A stretch of 64,000 nucleotides of DNA from positions 59,210,001 to 59,274,000 of the forward strand of contig OX597827.1 of the NCBI GenBank assembly GCA_951406725.2. The letters are read 5' to 3'. This document shows, in pieces, positions 1 through 52,912 of this stretch. The DNA is from Octopus vulgaris (lineage: Eukaryota). The notes below the pieces were generated by a model. The model was given only the letters and a program-made list of their open reading frames with translations, searched no databases and was not told the origin of the DNA. The position numbers were made by a program, and so were the translations under genes. The first letter of the stretch is position 1, and every line of letters begins with the position of its first letter.

Positions 1-363
1 TGAACCCGGAACCATGTAGTTGGTAAGCAAGCTATTTGCCACACAGCCACACCTGCGCCTATAAATGTGTGATGCTTACAGCACCTAGGTTTCCCAAGTG
101 GTCACTAAATACTAACTAGGCTCGACGTTGCTTAAGTTCAGTGATCGGATGAGAACCGGTGCTTTCAACGTGATATGGCCATAATTAATTAACAAAGAAG
201 ATTATCCCATTTGTCAAAGTTAACAGAAGGAAGGGTGTCAAGTAACAAAAAACAAAAAATAATAATCTATACCATGAATGTTAGTTAACACAGAAAAACT
301 GACATAACATTGAAAAATCTGTAAGAAAAAAAAAACCCCAGAAAAAGTAAAGAAACCTCTTAC

Positions 364-6125: not shown

Positions 6126-6327
6126 GGAGATGTACTCGCATAGCAAGTGATTTGATCTGAGATCGTGTGCTGAAACGAAAACGATTGCAGCGTGGAAGGT
6201 GTTTGTAAGCCATTTAAGAAACACACAAAAGCCATTCGATTCACTTCAACATTTATGTTTAATTTGTCAAAATATTTTCGTCGCTAAAATTCGCGACCTG
6301 TTCACTGACAAAAATCCATGCTGCATT
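6126..6327 (-). repeat. Half copy of a palindromic repeat family carrying a G3:C8 hammerhead-like motif
   Basis: Homologous to 32450-32743 and 34593-34921. Motif at 6263-6312 on the minus strand. Confidence 0.8.
6263..6312 (-). ncRNA. Putative type-I hammerhead ribozyme, G3:C8 variant
   Basis: Minus strand reads UUUGUCA-GUGAACA-G-GUCGC[gaauuuua]GCGAC-GAA-AAUAUU-U-UGACAAA. Confidence 0.6.
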
Positions 6328-8713
6328 ATTATTAACCAGAATTGTTAGCATACTAGACAAAATGCTTTAATGTATTTTGTTCCATCTCAGTTCAAATCCC
6401 GCTGAAGTTGACTTTGCATTTGGGGTTGATAAAGTACCAGCTGAACACTGGAGCTAATGTAATCGATTTACCCCTGTCCCACCCGAAATTGCTGGTCTTG
6501 TACCAAACTTTGAAACTGCTATTAATATTATTATCAAAGCAGTGAGCTGGCAGAGCTGTTAGTGCACCAGGCAAAATGTTTAGTGACATTTTGTCTGTCT
6601 TTACATTCTGAGTTCAAATTCTGTCAAGGCTGAATTTGTTTTTCATCCTTTTGGAGTCAATAAAATAAGTACCAGTTGAGCACTGGGGTCAATGAAATGA
6701 ATACCAGTTGAACATTGAGGCCAATATATATTTACACACACACATGCACATATGTATGAGTATGTGTATGTCTTTGTTTGGCCTCCTACCACCTGTGCTT
6801 AACTACAGCTGTTGGTTTGTTTACTTCCCTGTAACTTAGTGGTTCAGTAGAAAAAAACCAATAGAATAAGTATCTGACTTTACAAAAAAATAAGCAGTGG
6901 AATCAATCTGTTTGACTAATAACCCTTCAAAGTGGTGCTCCAGCATGGCTGTAGTTCAATGACTGAAACGGATAAAAAAATAAAGTGATACCTTTCTTCA
7001 CAAACTGTTTCAAATCATCTGTCCCCTATTCTGCTATATTTCCCTCCTATCTTTCTTTCTGCAACTTACTTGATCTAATCCACTTCCTCCAAATCATAAA
7101 CATTAAACCTGTATCTTATCTTCTCATCACCGTCACTAGCATTGAAGCTAGAATCACTCACTAAAACACAATCTTATCTTCATCAGAATTGCATTTCTTT
7201 AGAAGTTATTTCCTGTCCGAGTATTTTTCTTCCCTTTCAGCAACTTCATTTTAGGCAGATCTTTACCTTTTGACTGACAGATTTAACAAATAATTTTTTG
7301 TAACTAAACACTTTCAAACTTCAGACACTGGTAGAATGTGTCATATGAAACATACTCTTAGCATTTTTGAGAAAAACTTATATTTACAAAGTTATTTCAC
7401 ATTAAAGTTCTCATATTTTGGTAATTTCAACCAATCAATGACGTGTATTCAGCTGAATAAAATTACTGCTGTTGTTTGTCAAGAACTTCTGGCAGTGTAT
7501 ATTTCGTTTGTCAGTTATTTATGACAACCCTAACCCTAAAACCCTAACTGTAACCCTAAAACCTTAAAACCAGTACAAATGCACAAATGATGTCATAAAT
7601 AACAGTGACAAACGAAAAATACACCATGCTCCAGCATGGCTGTAGTTATGTGACTGAAACAAATAAGAGGGTAACTAGTTAGTTGTCTTACAAATCATCA
7701 TTTATTAATTACTAACAAGGACGCATTATTTCATTTTGCAACCATAAAATATATACATGTATACATACATACATACACACATAGTAGACATATACACATA
7801 TATATGAGTTGAATGCGAGAATTCATCATCATCATCATATATACAGTTAGGCATACGTAAATAATGGACCGCATCCCCTTTTGTTATTTATTTATTTATT
7901 TTTTTTACAGAAAGCCCCATTTTTGAATATAGAGATTCTGATTCTGCAAAAATAAAAATAAAAAACGGCATTTAAAAATTTTTATTTTTTCCCCACCCCC
8001 ACCACTGCCAAATTCTTCAATTTGACTGTAAAAAAGAATTTCTGTAAAAAGTGAAAATTGAAGAATTTGGTGGTGGTGGTGGTGGTGGGGAGGCGATTAA
8101 AATTTTTAAAAGCTATTTAAAAAATTTTTTTTTTGCCGAATCAGAATCTCGAAAATGGGAAATTCTTTAAAAAAAAAAAAAAAATAACTAAAGTGGGTGT
8201 GGTCCACATTCTTTACCTCTGTCCATATGCATACACACACGCACACATATATGTGTGTGCCTATATACATGCCAGCAATACCTGTGCAAAATTTTAAGTT
8301 TGATAAGGCTTGCATGATACCTCATAGTTCCTCTCCACCCTATGACATGATTGAGACAAACTGAGATAAGTTATCTAGTGCCAATATGAGTCACAAGCTC
8401 AGGACTATAGGAGTGCCATGATATCAAAACACCAAGAAAAACATCACCATAATGTTCAATGCCATTCCATGCATATCTGGTTTTACATCAGTGATCTACA
8501 TTTTCTGGAAAGACTTCTGCCCGTTCCCCCCACCACCACCACTACCACCGTCCACTTTCTCCCAAATTTGTTTATTTAAAAAAAAATTTTTTTTTCCAAA
8601 AATCCCCGTTTTCAGATACGGAGATTCCGGAAAATTGCCAAGAATTGGCATTGTGAAAATTTTTCTCCTCCTTTACCCACCAACTTCTTCAATTTTGACT
8701 TTTTTCTGCAACA

Positions 8714-9461: not shown

Positions 9462-10235
9462 TGTGGAGGCGGGTAGGTTAGTGGTTAGGGTGTCAGAACC
9501 GTGATCGTAAGATTGTGGTTTCGATTCCTGGACCGGCGACGCGTTGTGTTCTTGAGCAAAACACTTCATTTCACGTTGCTCCAGTCCACTCAGCTGGCAA
9601 AAATGAGTAATGCTGTGATGGACTGGCATCCCGTCCAGCTGGGGAACACATACGTCATAGAAACCAGGAAACCGAGCCCATGAGCCTGGCTAAGCTTTAA
9701 AAGGGCACATTTATTTTGTGGAGGCGCATGGCTTAGTGGCTAGGGTGTTAGCACCATGATCGTAAGATTGCGGTTTTGATTCCTGGACCGGGCGATGCGT
9801 TGTGTTCTTGAGCAAAACACTTCATTTCACGTTGCTCCAGTCCACTCAGATGGCAAAAATGAGTAACGCTGCGATGGACTGGCATCCTGTCCAGCTGGGG
9901 AACACATACGCCATAGAAACTGGGAAACCGGGCCCATGAGCCTGGCTAAGCTTTAAAAGGGCACATTTATTTTGTGGAGGTGCGTGGCTTAGTGGTTAGG
10001 GTATCAGAACCATGATTGTAAGATTGTGGTTTCGATTCCTGGACTGGGCGATGCGTTGTGTTCTTGAGCAAAACACTTCATTTCACGTTGTTCTAGTCCA
10101 CTCAGATGGCAAAAATGAGTAATGCTGTGATGGACTGGTGTCCCGTCCAGCTGGGGAACACATACGCCATAGAAACCAGGAAACCAGGCCCATGAGCCTG
10201 GCTAGGCTTTAAAAGGGCACATTTATTTTTATTAT
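9462..10235 (+). mobile_element. Head-to-tail trimer of a ~255-bp tRNA-derived SINE
   Basis: Units start at 9462, 9717 and 9973. A box tggcttagtgg and B box gtttcgattcc. Direct repeat atttggtgc at 9453-9461 and 10236-10244. Monomer copy at ~47228-47490. Confidence 0.88.
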
Positions 10236-11819
10236 ATTTGGTGCAGCCCTTCTGCTGTTATTTCAGAGAGCCGAGACAGTTTCTCTCTGTTCTTGACTAC
10301 ATAGGCACTTAGAAAAAAAAACATGAAGTGGATGGAGCTAATGCATTTTTATGAAAAAAATTTTTCGGATTCCTAAGTTTTAGATGTCGGAGATTACGAA
10401 TATGTAAAAAAAAAAATTTATTCCTGTCCGTTTATTCATAAAATATATTTGTCAACTAAATATAGCAGTCCTATAAAAAATGGTGTTGTTGTTGTTTTTA
10501 GCCCCAAGAAAATATTCATATCTATCTCTTCATACACATATCTATATGCGTACTCTTTTACTTGTTTCAGTTATTTGACTGCGGCCATGCTGGAGCACTG
10601 CCTTTAGTCGAGCAAATCGACCCCATACATACTGAATTTTTTTTCGAAATTTCAAGTTTCTCTTTTTGTACATCTATACGATGTGTGTCAGTAAATATGT
10701 GCACAAGTACACCAGTTTTGTTTTTCATATTAAATTCCGATATAATTGTAATCTATACGTTCTGAAATGTATTTAAAGAAAATTAAACCAACCTTTTTTT
10801 TTTCTAAAAGATATGAGGAAACAAAATCGATTCGTGTGAATTTTTTTCAACTCCTCTCCCCACTCATGGAATTTTTTCTTTCTTTTTTTTTTTCCACAAC
10901 AATTTCTGATTCAACAAATAATTGAAGTCTACATCGTCTGAAGCGTATTTATTCAACATTTCATTAGAATTTTTTTAAATATCCATTTTTCTGGAAGTTT
11001 TGAAGCAATAAAATCAGTGGTAGAGGGGGCATACATGTGGAGGTATACCTATTATCTAATGTGTCCTTACCGTATTTAACACAGTTGGGAGCAGTTTGAG
11101 AGAGATTTGGCTATTATCTTTAGCATGTCGAACGATCGAGTAGAGCTATTCGCTTTAACTTGGCAGTTAAACTTAGCAGACAAGGCGCACACAAAAGGCT
11201 AATATAACCCTATAAAGGTATCTGGGATGTGAATGGAATTAAAATAGAAAAAGAAAACAATAAGTACACGAACAACAACTAAAAACTTTGTATAAAAGTT
11301 TTTATTTATTTATTTTTGAGGATGAGTAAAAGAAACGAAGAAGATAAAGGAAAAGAACTATTAATAGTTACACTACACTTGAATATTACGAGAACCAACG
11401 AGGATACATCTATGTCTTCGTTCGACCTGCTAGAAATAACAGTCATATCTTACTCAAATCATACCTATGACTTCGGGTCGCATTAGACGATGTAGTCTTA
11501 CATTAACTTTCAGAATAAATAATGCGCTAATCATAACTAGAACGTCTTTGATAAGTCTACACGACCCACTGTCAACCTGGGGTTAAATATCTTCAGTCCT
11601 AAAATAATAAATACGAAACTGCTATTTTATTCTGATAAACTATTATTCTTTACTGAAATAAGAAAGAATATATATATATATAAATAAATATATATATATA
11701 TTAAAATCAAATCGATCTAATAATATTTTAGATTTTAGACGAACAGAAAACGAACACCTAGAATGTTAAAAGGCATAAGAACAGATTGATACAATTCTGT
11801 TGAACTGCTATTCTTAGAA

Positions 11820-14076: not shown

Positions 14077-14263
14077 TCCAAATTTAAGGAATTGAGTTGA
14101 TAAAATCCAAGCTACATACGTTTCCTAGCTAGTAGAATCTCAGAAATAGTAATTACTCAATGAAGGGTACTTGTTGAGTAATTATTACTTCCAAGGTTCT
14201 GCTAGCTAGGAAATATATGCAGCCTGGATTTTACCTAGTACATTCCTTAAATTTGGATTTATA
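14071..14263. repeat. Fold-back palindrome / MITE, ~90-bp imperfect arms
   Basis: aatccaaatttaaggaat...tttcctagctag...taattactcaa [~13-nt loop] ttgagtaatta...ctagctaggaaa...attccttaaatttggatt. Confidence 0.8.
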
Positions 14264-21296: not shown

Positions 21297-21490
21297 TTGA
21301 AAAAAAAAGAGGCAGTCAGAATTTTGGATAATTCTTTATTAGTGCTTCTGTTTGTTTACCCAAACTCTTCAAGACAAAAATTAAAACCAAAATTATTTTG
21401 GCTTTAACTTTTGTCTTGAAGAGTTTGGTTAAATGAACAAAAGTGTTAATAAGGAATTACCCAAAATTCTGACTGCCTCCTTTTTCTCAA
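21297..21490. repeat. Fold-back palindrome, ~95-bp arms with almost no loop
   Basis: gaggcagtcagaattttgg...caaactcttcaagacaaaa...ccaaaat|t|attttgg...ttttgtcttgaagagtttg...ccaaaattctgactgcctc. Confidence 0.82.
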
Positions 21491-30000: not shown

Positions 30001-32449
30001 CATCCTTAACCTGACTAATAAGAGGAAAAAATAAAGATAGATAAACGAATACATAAAAACAAGGAAAGAAAGAAAACATCTGACTTATCTCCATAGAAAC
30101 TGCACCTCAATTTATTGTCACACATATTCAATGTTTGTATTTTTTATTTCCCACAATGAGTGGATTTTTCTTGTCATTATGTAAGTAATAACAAATTTGT
30201 ATGAGAGTTAGGTGTGGTTCTTATAATTTTTTTTTCTTTTCTTTCCTATTTATTATTTTGTTAATATCTTCAAACTTAATCTTTGTATTCTTTTTTCCTT
30301 GTGAATTTTCTCAGAAACCGTAAAAAGTACCAACCAGTTGTGGACGTTGCTAGCCTCTTCTGGCCCCTGTGCCAGTGGCACATAAAAAGCACCCACTACA
30401 CTCATGGAGTGATTGGCATTAGGAAGGGCATCCAGCTGTAGAAACACTGCCAGATCAGACTGGAGCCTGGTGTGGCCTCCTGGCTCCCCAGACCCTGGTC
30501 TTTATCATTTGTCTTTTGATTTTTATTTGTTTCAGTCATTGGACTGTGACCATGCTGGGGCACCACCTTGAAAGGTTTAGTCAAACAAATTGCTCCCAAT
30601 ACTTATTTTTTTTATAAGCCTAATACTTATTCTATCAGTCTCTTTTTGCCAAAGTACTAAGTGAGGGCAATGTAAACAAACCAACACTGGTTGTCAAGTG
30701 GTGGGGGTGGGGTAGGGGACAAACACACACATACATATATATTACAAGCTTCTTTCCACCTATATAATCAACTCAGAAGGCTTTGGTTAGCCTGAGGCTA
30801 TGGTAAAAGACACTTGCCCAAGGTGCCACACAGTGGGACTGAACCTATCGTCATGTGGTTGGGAAGCAAACTTCTTACATCAGTGCCACACCTCTGCCAT
30901 GTTTGTGCCTTATAGGCCTTATAAATTTCTTACTCTAAATACTGAGTGCTTTAATTTTTGTTCATATCAACAATATTAATTACACCATGTGTGTGTGTTG
31001 TATAGCACTGTGGTTAAGAAGTTCACTTACCAACCATGTGGTTTCGAGTTCAATCCCACTGTGCTGCACATTTGGCTGTTGTCTTCCTCTATAGCCCCAC
31101 ATCAACCAGAACCAAAACCTTGTCGATGAATTTGGTAAATGAAAATTGAATGAAGCCTGTTGTGTTTATATGAATAAATACATATACATGTGAAGGTGCA
31201 TGGCTTAGTGTTTTGGGCATTTGTCTCACAATTGTAAGGTTGTGAGCAACACACTTTAATTCACATTGCTCCAATCCACCCAGCTGACACAACTGAGTTG
31301 CATCTGTAATTCAGAAGAGCCAGCCCTATCGCTTTCTGTGTCACGCTGAATCTCCCTGCAAACTACATTAAGGGTACTCACGTCTGTGGAGTGCTCAGCC
31401 ATTTGCATGTTAATTTCACAAGCAGTATGTTCCATTGAGTGTATTAAGTGGAACACTTGTCATTGTAATTGATAGAAAGCCAGGTCACATACACATTGTG
31501 TGTGTGTCTGTGTGTCCATGTGTTTGTTTACATATGCCTTCTGTGACAGTTGGTACAGTGTTGTTGTTATCTCTCTTCTTGTCAACAACTTATCAACTTG
31601 CTTCACTCCTTCATAGAAGTATGAGATAAGAGATCCTTTGCTTAACCCTTTGGTTACCAAACCGGCTGAAACCAGCTCTGGTCCTGAGTACAAATGTGTT
31701 GTTTTCATAAGTTTTGTATTAAAATCTTCCACCAAACTTTTGTCACCATTTATGTTCCTAACACTAGCTGAATGATAACTAAGTTATTTTGCTAATTTCT
31801 TTGTTATATTTAAAGTAATTGAAAGAAATACAGAGCATCTCAAAATAAATATAGTAACAAAAGGATTAAAAAACAAATAAGTTAGTGATAGGAAGGGCAT
31901 TCAGCTGTAAAACAACACTTGAATGATATATTGTCCAATCCATGCAAACATGAAAAAATCGACATAAAATTAACAAATGAATATATATAATATTGATATA
32001 TTTTAACTTATTAATCAAATCAAATATATTTGAGAAGACATCTACATAAAAAATGCATACATCCATCAGTTTGAAAGTGGGCCCTCCGATTTGAACTATA
32101 TTTATCTCAATTACTGCTGAGCACTTTTAATCCATAAATGGTGCACAGGAATAAAGTACCTGTGCTAGTACCACATAAAAAGCACCTGTATTGGTGCCGG
32201 GTAACAAAAAATTTCCATGCTAGTTCCACATAAAATGTACTCATGCTGGTGCCATGTAAAAAGGAACCTGTGTTGGTATCACCTGAAGGGCATCCAGATG
32301 TAGTAACCTTGCCAAAACAGACAATTGCAGCCAGGTGTTGCTCTCCAGCTTGCCAGCTCCTGTCAAACCATCCAACCATGTCAGCATGGTAAATGGTCAT
32401 TATATGATGATGATGATACATATATATATATATATATATATATATTACG

Positions 32450-32743
32450 GATCTGAGATCGTGTGCTGGAACGAAAACAATTGCAGCATGGGAGGTGTTT
32501 ATAAGCCATTTAAGAAACACTTGCATGTTTCACTTCAACATTTAAATTTAATTTGTCAAAATATTTTTGTCGCTTTTAGACCGTGACCTGTTCACTGATG
32601 CAGCACGAAGCTTTGCCAATGAACAGGTCGCGGTCTCAAAGCAACGAAAATATTTTGACAAATTAAATTTAAATGTTGAAGTGAATCTAATGGTTTTGTT
32701 TGTTTCTTAAATGGCTTATAAACACCTTCCACGCTGCAATTGT
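32450..32743. repeat. Palindromic repeat with two decayed inverted hammerhead-like motifs
   Basis: Same family as 34593-34921. Minus copy ~32552-32598 has G12>A; plus copy ~32612-32662 has G3>A. Confidence 0.8.
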
Positions 32744-34592: not shown

Positions 34593-34921
34593 CTGGAAGG
34601 TGTTTGTAAGCCATTTAAGAAACACACAAAAGCCGTTCAATTCACTTCAACATTTAAGTTTAATTTGTCAAAATATTTTCGTCGCTTTAAGACTGCGACC
34701 TGTTCACTGACAAAAATCTGTGCAGCACGGATTTTTGTCAGTGAACAGGTCGCGGTCTTAAAGCGAGGAAAATATTTTGACAAATTAAACTTAAATGTTG
34801 AAGTGAATCGAACGGCTTTTGTGTGTTTCTTAATTGGCTTACAAACACCTTCCACGCTGCAATTGTTTTCATTCCAGCACACAATCTCAGATCAAATCAC
34901 TTGCTATGCGAGTACATCTCC
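34593..34921. repeat. Palindromic repeat with back-to-back hammerhead-like motifs
   Basis: ~125-bp inverted arms centred near 34724. Motifs at 34664-34714(-) and 34734-34784(+). Confidence 0.85.
34664..34714 (-). ncRNA. Putative type-I hammerhead ribozyme, G3:C8 variant, intact copy
   Basis: Minus strand reads UUUGUCA-GUGAACA-G-GUCGC[agucuuaaa]GCGAC-GAA-AAUAUU-U-UGACAAA. Confidence 0.62.
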
Positions 34922-35351
34922 GTAATTTTCACTAACTCTACCCCCAACAAACCAATCTACATCTCCACATCTCTTTTCTTCCTGACATTTCTTCCTTCAT
35001 ACACTATACCTTGCTCTCACTCCCCAATCCTGTCTTCATGGCCCTGTTCTTCTGTATCAGTAGCACCCCCTTCCACTGTCTCTGTACATACCCAGGTTTT
35101 CGCCACTCATTCCCCACCTCCACACACTTTAACCATATTTTGCAATATCCTGCCACTTATATTATGGGTATGTCCTGGCTCTTACACCATCTATATCTCT
35201 CTCTTCCTTTACTCAACCATCCCATTTATATTCTGACCCCCACCCTTGTGAGTATACCCAGCATTTAGACACCATCTAAGTTACAGGAACATAAACAAAC
35301 TAATATTTGGTTGTCAAGTGATAGTAGGGGGGTTCAAACATGGACACAAAG

Positions 35352-39651: not shown

Positions 39652-39714
<63 letters not shown>

Positions 39715-40547
39715 CACGACCGGCTTCTTTCAGTTTCTGTCTACCAAATCCACTCACAAGGCATTGTTTGGCCCGGGGCTATAGCAGAAGACACTTGCCC
39801 AAGATGCCACACAGTGGGACTGAACCCGGAACCATGTGGCTGGTTAGCAAGCTACTTACCACACAGCCACTCCTGCAGATCTTCGAGGATCTTATACATA
39901 AACTTCATTGATGTTGTGACGTAGTTACAGCCCAGCTGTGATCAAGGATTACTCTCACAAGAATAAATTAATAGGTTATTGATAACCTTAAGAGTAACAG
40001 ATTGCATTGAAAGTAACATATGGCTTTAATATTAGTTAATATAACAGCTTACCCTTTGCAAATATTCCTATAAAAATATAAGACACAAATTAGTGTGTAG
40101 GAGGACGGATTATAGTTTGTGTGCTGTTTTACAGGTGTCATCGTAACTAGCTGATGTAAATTTATATATATATAAGGTACACGTATACCTACAGTCAATC
40201 ATTTTATTATACACAAAATGACTGACTCCTCCTCATCCAGGTAAGAATATTTAAAACCAAAAAAATCTTCACTTTTAAATTTTGCTGTTTAATGTATACT
40301 TCTGTAATATATTTATTTAAGTTGCCAATTCTGGCCGAAATCTATCAAAGTGTGTGTATCATCATCATCATCGTTTAACGTCCGTTCTCCATGCTAGCAT
40401 GGGTTGGACGGTTCGACCGGGGATCTGGGAAGCCAGAAGGCTGCACCAGGCTCCAGTCTTATCTGGCAGTGTTTCTACAGCTGGATGCCCTTCCTAACGC
40501 CAACGACTCCGTGAGTGTAGTGGGTGCTTTTTACGTGCCACCTGCAC

Positions 40548-44464: not shown

Positions 44465-44808
44465 GTGAGGTTAATTTGGTACATTTTAATGCAAAGAAAA
44501 AGTTAATAATTAGTGTTTGTCAAATATTTATTACACATAGAGGAAATTCAGTTTGGAATAAAATTCATAACTCAGTTTTATATACTCTTTATTCTTTACT
44601 CTTTTACTTGTTTCAGTCATTTGACTGCGGCCATGCTGGAGCATCGCCTTTAATCGAGCAACTCGACCCCGGGACTTATTCTTTGTAAGCCCAGTACTTA
44701 TTCTATCAGTCTCTTTTGCTGAACCGCTAAGTGACAGGGACATAAACACACCAGCATCGGTTGTCAAGCAATGCTAGGGGAACAAACACAGACACACAAA
44801 CATACATG

Positions 44809-44890
<82 letters not shown>

Positions 44891-44898
44891 CATACACA

Positions 44899-44930
<32 letters not shown>

Positions 44931-45218
44931 AGACAGGCTTCTTTCAGTTTCCGTCTACCAAATCCACTCACAAGGCTTTGGTTGACCCGAGGCTATAGTA
45001 GAAGACACTTGCCCAAGGTGCCACGCAGTGGGACTGAACCTGGAACTGTGTGGTTGGTAAACAAGCTACTTACCACACAGCCACTCCTGCGCCTATTTTA
45101 TAATGATTTTTATAATGTATAGAAAAAATAAGCAAGAGAGTAAAGTATGAAACTAGTGATGTCCCTTTGTTTTTAACCACTTCACTCTTTTGCACTTTTC
45201 TCCTACCTCACTTACCTA

Positions 45219-50540: not shown

Positions 50541-52649
50541 GGGGCATATTAACCCTTTAGCATTTCCTGTTGCCTTCTCCAGCCGGGTAGAATTTGAACT
50601 CAGATTGCAGAGAGCCTGAAGATACACCTTAAAGCATTTCTGCCAACTCCAACAATTCTTCCACTCTCCCATCCACAGAGCAATGTGAAATGAAGTGTTT
50701 TGCTCAAGAACACAATGTGCCGCCCAGTCCAGGGATCGAACCCATAAACTAGCAATTATGAGTGCAGCACCCTAACCACTGGACCACATGATTCAAGTAA
50801 CCATTTATAAGCCTTTTTATTGGCCTAAAGATTCTCTCATTGGTTCCTTCAGCGGTTTAAATGAGTCAGTAGAAGGTTTCTCATTAATTTCAGACTGGTG
50901 TATTCCTGATGTTTAGTTGTGTTTTTTAGGCCCTATGCTATTCTGGATTGCATAATTAACTGTAGTTCTGAGTTCAAATCATGCCACAATCATCTTTCAG
51001 ATATTAGCAAACTGAAATCTTGCTGAGAACTGATTCAAGATTACTTGAAGAAAATCTTGCTGGAAGAATGGTCAAAGTGCCAGAACATTTCTTTTGCATG
51101 ACAGTCAAAGACTAGTCTCATACAACTATTTCAGTCGTGATTTTATGGAGACAAAAATTAAGAAAATCAGTAAATATAACTGCAAATAATTAAATTGATG
51201 TGAGATGCACACATATACTCACAAACTTTTCAACATTGAAATGATATATTGAGGTTGTGAGTTAGTGCTTAAGCAGGTATGACTGTCTGTGTACTAAAGT
51301 AAATTCACTTCACAACCACATAGTCCTTACTCTTTACTCTTTTACTTGTTTCAGTCATTTGACTGCGGCCATGCTGGAGCACTGCCTTTAATCGAGCAAC
51401 TCGACCCCGGGACTTATTCTTTGTAAGCCCAGTACTTATTCTATTGGTCTCTTTTGCCAAACCGCTAAGTGACGGGGACATAAACACACCAGCATCAGTT
51501 GTCAAGCAATGCTAGGGGGGCAAACACAAACATACACGCATGCACTCATACACATATATATACATATATACGGCGGGATTCTTTCAGTTTCCGTCTACCA
51601 AATCCACTCACAAGGCTTTGGTCGGCCTGAGGCTATAGTAGAAGACACTTGCCCAAGGTGCCACGCAGTGGAGCTGAACCCGGAACCATGTGGCTGGTAA
51701 ACAAGCTACTTACCACACAGCCACTCCTGCGCCTTGTTCAATTCCACTGCATTCCCACAACACTTTGGGCAAATATCTTATAACCATAGCCTCACGGTTG
51801 ACCGATGAATAAATAACTGGCACTCCATTGGTTATGACGACAAGGGTTCCAGTTGACCTGATCCGGGAAACAGCTTGCTTGTGAAATTAATGCGCACATT
51901 ATTGAGTACTCCACAGACGTGTACCCTTTAACGTAATTCACAGGGAGATTCAGCATGACACAGAATGTGACAAGACTGGCCGTTTGAATTACAAATACTA
52001 ATCATTTTTGCCAGCTGAGCAGACTGGAGCAATGTGACAGAAAGTATCTTGCTCAAGGACAAATTGCACTGCCAGGTATTGATCTCACAACCTTACGATC
52101 ATGGGCCGAATACTCCTAACCACTAAGCCACGTGATGAAACTTTATAGAGAGAGACTGTGTAGAAACCTTGTTACATGTGTGTATGTATGTATGTATGTA
52201 TGTATGTATGTATGTATGTATGTATGTTTCTTTCTTTCTTCCTTTTTTCCTTTCTTTCTTTCTTTTTTTCTTTCTTAGGCATATATTAGCTAATGATTTA
52301 AATATCAGTAGGAAAGCTGAAAAAAAACTGGTACTTTTCTATCAAATTTCCTTGAGATATTTGTTCTGCCTCAGTTTAGATACTCCCTTGTCACTCTCAT
52401 TGTCAGACATGGTTACTGATTTCCATTGATTAGAAATCGGTAACCAACAATGCTATTGTTCTCAAAGTGTGAAATAAAATAAAATAAAATTTTTTATTTG
52501 TTTTTCTAGTTTTATAACAGTGCTGCAGCAGAAGGTACTTGGTCTTCTCAATTGCAATTAACATAATTAATGTTTTTTTTTATGTCATCTGTTTCTATTT
52601 CTCTGTTATACTCTACTGTCAAACGGAATTGTTGATACCATGTAGTTAG

Positions 52650-52912
52650 CACACAGAATTACTAGATAGCACACACAATTGCCCAATAACACACAGAATT
52701 GCCCAATAACACACACAATTGCCCAATAACACACAGAATTGCCCAATAACACACACAATTGCTCAATAACACATGCAATTGCCCAATAACACATGCAATT
52801 GTCCAATAACACACACAATTGCCCAATAACACACAATTGCTCAATAACACACAACTGCCCAATAACACACAATTGCTTAATAACACACAATTGCTTAATA
52901 ATACATACAATT
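52650..52912 (+). repeat. Minisatellite with 18/20-bp unit (ac)acacaattgcccaataac, about 13 copies
   Basis: Directly visible tandem array. Confidence 0.92.

Follow-up and report, generated by a model that had tools for sequence, protein, structure and literature searches.

Pseudo-LTRs of an Octopus vulgaris Penelope-like element carry a predicted G3:C8 hammerhead and probably form palindromes by two-site priming

Minimal type I hammerhead motifs have been described in the pseudo-LTRs (pLTRs) of metazoan Penelope-like elements (PLEs). Their activity is weak even as dimers, and their 3:8 pair shows natural covariation to U3-A8 (PMC4209133), a state also reported in PMC3088659. The exchanged pair G3-C8 is described as an engineered variant (PMC3884650; PMC8495972; PMC11167929), and the C3G/G8C double change is partly active, also in a PLE ribozyme that requires protein (PMC11167929; PMC8495972). 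For that PLE, studied in vitro, reverse transcription starts at two internal sites in the ORF and both strands are cut and extended; uncut RNA is the main template, cleavage is assisted by protein, and C3G/G8C rescues it in part (PMC11167929). PLEs also leave head-to-head repeats with a tail on one side only. The one-sided tail was previously known in qualitative terms, and how such repeats form is a question raised in PMC3846280 and PMC8557442.

We examined a window of 64,000 nt from Octopus vulgaris (contig OX597827.1, forward-strand positions 59,210,001 to 59,274,000), in which an initial annotation had described a palindromic repeat at 34593..34921 with back-to-back hammerhead motifs in which the bases at positions 3 and 8 were swapped. 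The repeat is located there, except that its right edge lies further out, the long arm running to ~34925, and the coordinates given for every copy are borne out by the window sequence (Table 1). The repeat is the pLTR plus ORF start of a PLE that encodes a reverse transcriptase (RT), a Cys linker and a GIY-YIG endonuclease (EN). We consider it probable that this pLTR bears a predicted G3:C8 hammerhead and that the palindromes represent two cDNAs joined head to head, each begun at its own fixed site on sense RNA that was capped and uncut. A stronger version is advanced only tentatively: a natural G3:C8 hammerhead that is catalytically competent and fixed in thousands of copies, together with obligatorily asymmetric two-site priming, in which a protein dimer would copy two capped RNAs, possibly held together by stem III, one from each fixed site.

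Table 1. Copies of the repeat in the 64-kb window and their features (feature, position, strand, remarks)
Short arm of head-to-head insertion	34594..34726	-	pLTR and first ~21 nt of ORF
Long arm of the same 34.7-kb insertion	34722..34925	+	pLTR and tail, end at ORF +92
Intact minimal type I hammerhead motif	34664..34714	-	G3:C8, with G3 at 34707; predicted cut 3' of U17 at 34671
Hammerhead motif with G.G mismatch at 10.1:11.1 (34767)	34734..34784	+	G3 at 34741, C8 at 34746, U17 at 34777
First ~30 codons of PLE ORF	34834..34925	+	start codon changed in the 34.7-kb copy
Solo long-type copy within (AAT)n tract	6126..6324	-	intact hammerhead motif at 6263-6312, loop II of 8 nt
Older head-to-head insertion, long arm	32445..32598	-	tail internally deleted; A at position 12; left boundary approximate
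Older head-to-head insertion, short arm	32600..32743	+	A at position 3; stems I and II broken

The arms of the 34.7-kb insertion are 96% complementary over 130 nt with a 1-nt spacer, and its short arm ends slightly upstream of the usual short site (ORF +27..37; see below). The intact motifs of this short arm and of the 6.3-kb copy fit a single descriptor consisting of a 7-bp stem I, a core running from G3 to C8, one extra base, a 5-bp stem II, GAA, a palindromic stem III and U17. Loop II has 9 nt in the 34.7-kb copies versus 8 nt in the 6.3-kb copy, and the stem is identical, in agreement with the loop variation originally noted. The mirror motif on the plus strand is present as annotated but is not intact, and the mismatch at the base of its stem II likely impairs it. 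The copies near 32.5 kb are indeed decayed, each at a core position, and this older insertion has (TA)n on both flanks. When the window was shuffled locally 30 times, none of the 30 versions gave a G3:C8 or C3:G8 match to the descriptor, and a covariance-model search of the window returned the five known copies and no others. At E<=1 the window gave no match to any Rfam hammerhead model, and hairpin-driven matches to miRNA models stayed below the gathering score; the expectation that CUGANGA-based searches would miss the motif is supported, and Rfam searches miss it as well.

Several other features of the window are recorded here. A 5S rRNA match at 73-186(-) (82.8 bits, above the Rfam gathering score) is probably a dispersed copy or pseudogene. 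Three copies of a 256-nt tandem repeat fill 9535-10302, and 47308 marks one more copy that is related to them; at 52627-52855 there is a minisatellite with a 20-nt unit. Long hairpins unrelated to the PLE repeat (~7970-8111, 14087-14247 and 21342-21446), with sub-threshold miRNA matches, may represent MITEs or further inverted pLTRs. Several SINE-like families that end in microsatellites are abundant (e.g., 39658-39876, 44582-45090 and 51320-51730).

Genome-wide (2.8 Gb), the core 20-mer with G3:C8 has 6,323 exact matches, and a reversed control has none. Among the arms of this family (family A), position 3 is G in 156/158 and position 8 is C in 156/162; A9 is found in 162/163 and U17 in 167/169. 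Family A does not carry the literal core C3 U4 G5 A6 N7 G8 A9. It does carry the remaining hammerhead signature of U4 G5 A6, A9, G12 A13 A14, A15.1-U16.1 and H17, along with G10.1-C11.1 and an extra base after position 9. The contigs of runs X2, X9, X16 and X18 contain the repeat, and among the run-contig matches listed there was no common alternative letter at positions 3 or 8. The runs listed as containing the repeat include no RNA run.

Protein searches led to two sister families in the same genome, with ~57% and ~50% amino-acid identity, one of which has an Octopus vulgaris protein as a near-identical homologue. In a quick tree built from 36 rows, family A and the two sisters, B and C, fall into a single clade, (A,(B,C)), with an SH-aLRT of 100. 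The motif sits at the same place in each, ~90-135 nt upstream of the ATG, with G3:C8 in family A, C3:G8 in B and U3:A8 in C, which argues that the swap within a minimal type I hammerhead fold is genuine, as first proposed. Families B and C were initially picked up by a descriptor demanding a 3:8 pair; the position of the motif relative to the ORF serves as the independent check. Unrelated hammerhead-like families also occur (L061:2457, 3041, 5926, 6496, 8403; L221:3025, 5748; L087:5773), with cores that are either U3:A8 (L061, near a different GIY-YIG ORF) or canonical C3:G8.

Fifteen natural copies, drawn from the three families, were aligned with plain MAFFT on sequence only. In this alignment 97% of cells pair, versus 31-50% in slid controls, and 7 of 11 pairs show changes on both sides. 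The 3:8 pair is GC in 5 copies, UA in 5, CG in 4 and other in 1 (14/15 paired). Five of the between-family compensations are each backed by more than one copy (one at 3:8, plus two pairs in each of stems I and II), and U4, G5, A6, G12, A13, A14, A15.1 and U16.1 are invariant in 15/15, the copies representing three lineages rather than 15 independent events. The covariation called for at the outset is present, with stems I and II and the 3:8 pair all changing compensatorily. Within family A (197 arms), subfamily-diagnostic positions number 0/42 in stems and core, 5/9 in loop II and 14/142 elsewhere; conservation of the 5' half is inflated because 80/107 loci were chosen by the exact core 20-mer, and the unbiased 3' half by itself has 0/22 diagnostic positions, a contrast that is not significant. 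Protein-coding constraint on the core is rejected, as the ATG lies 92-93 nt downstream of G3. The 3:8 states and the stem compensation support selection on the predicted hammerhead fold.

The Penelope-like origin suspected in the initial annotation is established by the joining of the repeat to ORFs with RT, Cys linker and GIY-YIG. The repeat lies 3' of the ORF in all seven long-ORF loci retrieved (L082-L088), and at L103, L104 and L107 it continues straight into the ORF start, its last ~90 nt being the first ~30 codons. The 87-aa ORF start of L104 is 37% identical to the N-terminus of a sister family (BLASTP, E 6e-15), and a BLASTP comparison of the window's 29 codons with the sister ORF gave no match. 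The GIY-YIG domain exceeds the Pfam cut-off (25.4 vs 22.6 bits). The Pfam search of the ORF gave no RT-domain match, and the RT was assigned by motifs and by homologues named RT-domain proteins. A CX2-5CxxC linker lies between RT and EN (P0001 residue 896; P0002 residue 1186). As in EN+ PLEs, a single ORF combines RT with a C-terminal GIY-YIG, and the pLTRs derive from partial tandems and inverted 5'-truncated copies with an optional tail; at L084 and L104 pLTRs flank the ORF on both sides and an inverted copy is present in addition. Its Cys linker groups the element with Neptune/Nematis-type PLEs; no named Neptune reference is among the 120 homologues listed. No unbroken start-to-stop ORF was found among the family-A copies inspected, which counts against our explanation. 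The palindrome, two PLE end pieces joined head to head, is an integration product. The family-B ORF contains a long asparagine-rich insertion (P0002 residues ~250-505, L089), similar to the N-rich inserts described in rotifer PLEs (PMC3846280).

The ends of the copies were surveyed on 180 arms at 107 loci, of which 27 were selected by the stretch downstream of the cut site, with 3 duplicate loci removed, and the other 80 were taken in chromosome order from the core 20-mer match listing (L172/L174 and L175/L176 are apparent duplicates within the survey). Two fixed ORF sites account for the 3' ends of 161/180 arms: 93 end at ORF +84..96 (long) and 68 at +27..37 (short), leaving 19 elsewhere. The long end was reproduced against a reference reaching further into the ORF, and families B and C have the same two ends as judged by eye. 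Head-to-head pairs number 63, and all 51 that are classifiable combine a long with a short arm (p about 1e-16 if ends are independent); there are no tail-to-tail pairs. The 41 solo arms include 25 long and 11 short. At the 5' side, 79/180 arms end at -26..-17 from G3, with a peak at -23. Arms starting at -23 are preceded by G where the element has C in 20/24 cases, some of which, in paired arms, could derive from the opposite arm; for solo arms the count is 8/9 (p 0.001). L139 has the extra G on both arms. TA-type repeats directly abut 101/180 arms, and short palindromes or microhomology are frequent at the junctions. A splice-acceptor reading of the sequence upstream of the motif (a branch-point-like word, a pyrimidine tract and AG) is disfavoured, because the 5' ends peak at the A of that AG, which spliced RNA would lack; there was no GT..AG joint among the run-contig matches listed.

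Reverse transcriptases can copy a cap as an extra G, and L1 inversions form by twin priming. In the mechanism we propose, transcription would start at -23 and the extra G would be a copy of the cap. The endonuclease would cut both strands in TA-rich DNA, as has been seen for the PLE of PMC11167929, and a dimer of the ORF protein would prime one cDNA at ORF +~33 and another at +~92, with uncut sense RNA as template for both. When primed on the 5' pLTR, these cDNAs would reach the cap and stop there at a length of ~150 or ~205 nt, which would be the source of the thousands of short copies, and the joining of two cDNAs through microhomology would create a head-to-head palindrome; long copies would come from priming at the downstream pLTR or on a circle. 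Short copies, a one-sided tail and palindromes would thereby all follow from two-site priming. The templates of most copies would have been intact at the predicted cut site. The ribozyme would be weak alone and would cut only as a dimer or with protein help. Cleavage would be most plausible where two same-strand pLTRs (the 5' and 3' pLTRs of a tandem) lie in one transcript. Its product would be an RNA of unit length, which might then form a circle as PMC4209133 proposes.

Other origins of these copies appear less credible. Fold-back self-priming, e.g., on an antisense template as for rotifer PLEs (PMC3846280), would suit the short palindromes and microhomology at junctions and the 1-nt spacer at 34.7 kb, but one cDNA would yield mirror arms with equal or random outer ends, whereas every classifiable pair combines the two different fixed ends, both ends recur in solo copies, and L139 carries its extra G twice. 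The antisense scheme in the portion of PMC3846280 covered would not on its own lead one to expect two distinct fixed ends; in a variant, fold-back may be followed by fixed endonucleolytic trimming. We judge self-priming improbable. More improbable in our view is the suggestion, made in the initial annotation, of a separate non-autonomous or retrozyme family, in which the ~200-nt unit would spread in retrozyme- or SINE-like fashion from short masters. It draws on the dominance of short copies (15/180 arms reach 5' of -26), on exact-match counts of 406 for a 30-mer that spans the upstream sequence and 6,323 for the core 20-mer (a rough ratio, the lengths being unequal), on the retention of the predicted start site in short copies, on the lack of any intact family-A ORF among those seen, and on one 5-copy tandem array (L023). 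The repeat is, however, physically joined to RT and GIY-YIG ORFs at both the 3' end and the start, copies with 8-nt and 9-nt loops are both ORF-joined (L082, L084, L104; L098, L107), the end of the unit falls inside the ORF, and the copies are dispersed, the first 30 loci containing a single tandem array. It is barely conceivable that the repeat is a palindromic DNA transposon (MITE) that looks like a hammerhead by chance: the near-perfect inverted repeat at TA-rich sites recalls one, but the arms are unequal, 41 are solo, copies are 5' truncated and the motif covaries across families. The MITE reading is refuted by the RT/GIY-YIG ORF linkage, and symmetric terminal inverted repeats are not what is found.

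On the role of the motif, the main rival to a ribozyme keeps the same PLE and holds that a hammerhead-shaped but non-catalytic structure is retained for protein binding, RNA pairing or 5' UTR control, which is possible, if doubtful. Folding of the predicted capped RNA gives the pairs of stems I and II probabilities of p>=0.69, and 11/12 pairs reach >=0.92. Stem III is weak, in favour of this rival: the palindrome is present, its duplex is worth -0.2 kcal/mol, and a co-fold of two copies contained no active dimer. The predicted cut site is the 5' end of 2/180 arms, not above neighbouring positions, and, apart from the older L204:6013 with A9, C occupies position 9 in 7/8 loci examined of family B, the most intact sister family (C9 in L089:7892, L090, L203, L208 and L214). 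These results, that on stem III included, count against our explanation and point toward a non-catalytic structure, as do U17 and the report that dead mutants transpose normally in vitro, with no reads ending at the cut site (PMC11167929). On the other side, the 3:8 pair belongs to the tertiary structure of the active fold, where it stays Watson-Crick in three different states, the eight core and flanking residues listed above are invariant, and cut templates would be uncapped and perhaps simply unused. The young family B has many intact 1,310-1,312-aa frames despite C9; a perfect core seems dispensable there, and C9 is either a tolerated core variant or a sign that catalysis was lost in a successful lineage.

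The reading of the palindrome as a pair of functional ribozymes is not supported. RNA transcribed across it is predicted to form a single ~130-bp hairpin (-221 kcal/mol), in which the hammerhead fold is lost, and the back-to-back motifs lie on opposite strands and so cannot dimerise in cis. Each intact arm is predicted to specify a self-cleaving hammerhead RNA. At L023:809-1953, five ~200-nt units lie head to tail with short TA runs between them; this array is retrozyme-like, and its same-strand motifs could dimerise in cis.

The classic C3G/G8C compensation experiment has here been carried out by nature, as the sister elements bear G:C, C:G or U:A. A survey that looks for hammerheads by CUGANGA or by Rfam models would overlook a whole abundant family, whose core has no fewer than 6,323 exact matches in this genome alone. 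The ends of thousands of copies likely record the PLE copying mechanism: the strict pairing of a long with a short arm, the G that resembles a cap copy and the lack of cut-site ends yield countable genomic predictions for the existing in vitro PLE assay. If true, the stronger, obligatorily asymmetric version of two-site priming would settle whether a sense or an antisense template gives rise to PLE inverted repeats.

The octopus motif is like the minimal type I hammerheads of metazoan PLEs (PMC4209133) in its pLTR location, the extra base between 9 and 10.1, G10.1-C11.1, a short palindromic stem III, opposite-strand pairs and many solo copies. Unlike those hammerheads, the octopus clade has three 3:8 states in one genome and a 7-bp stem I, and G3:C8 is not mentioned in the main-text portion of PMC4209133 covered. 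The literature searched contained no natural G3:C8 hammerhead; Lunse et al. (PMC5785218; PLE hammerhead variants), Dfam and Repbase lie outside that scope, and Lunse et al. may already list G3:C8. By its structure the motif belongs to the minimal PLE hammerheads, with cleavage predicted, but it fails the literal core consensus.

Non-LTR retrozymes are likewise short non-coding units with type I hammerheads from PLE pLTRs (bioRxiv 10.64898/2026.07.22.740005; PMC7229834). They form tandem arrays without an ORF, whereas the octopus family is dispersed or inverted and ORF-linked, with the one array seen (bioRxiv 10.64898/2026.07.22.740005). With Neptune/Nematis-type EN+ PLEs (PMC8557442; PMC3846280) the element shares an RT, a CX2-5CxxC linker, a C-terminal GIY-YIG, partial tandems, an inverted 5'-truncated copy, microsatellite targets, first codons within the pLTR and a tail that is often one-sided; unlike theirs, its core is non-canonical and its tail is longer than the quoted 30-40 bp. 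The Poseidon element PAc of Anolis (PMC11167929) is similar in its AT-rich targets, in its uncut RNA template and in having a tail that is defined by two RT start sites within the beginning of the ORF. The strict long+short pairing and the cap-like G are absent from the portion of PMC11167929 covered. Unlike PAc, the octopus element belongs to another clade (Cys linker), its motif lies wholly upstream of the ATG and its tail is ~55-60 nt; C3G/G8C is partly active in PAc as an engineered mutant, and in the octopus G3:C8 is natural and fixed.
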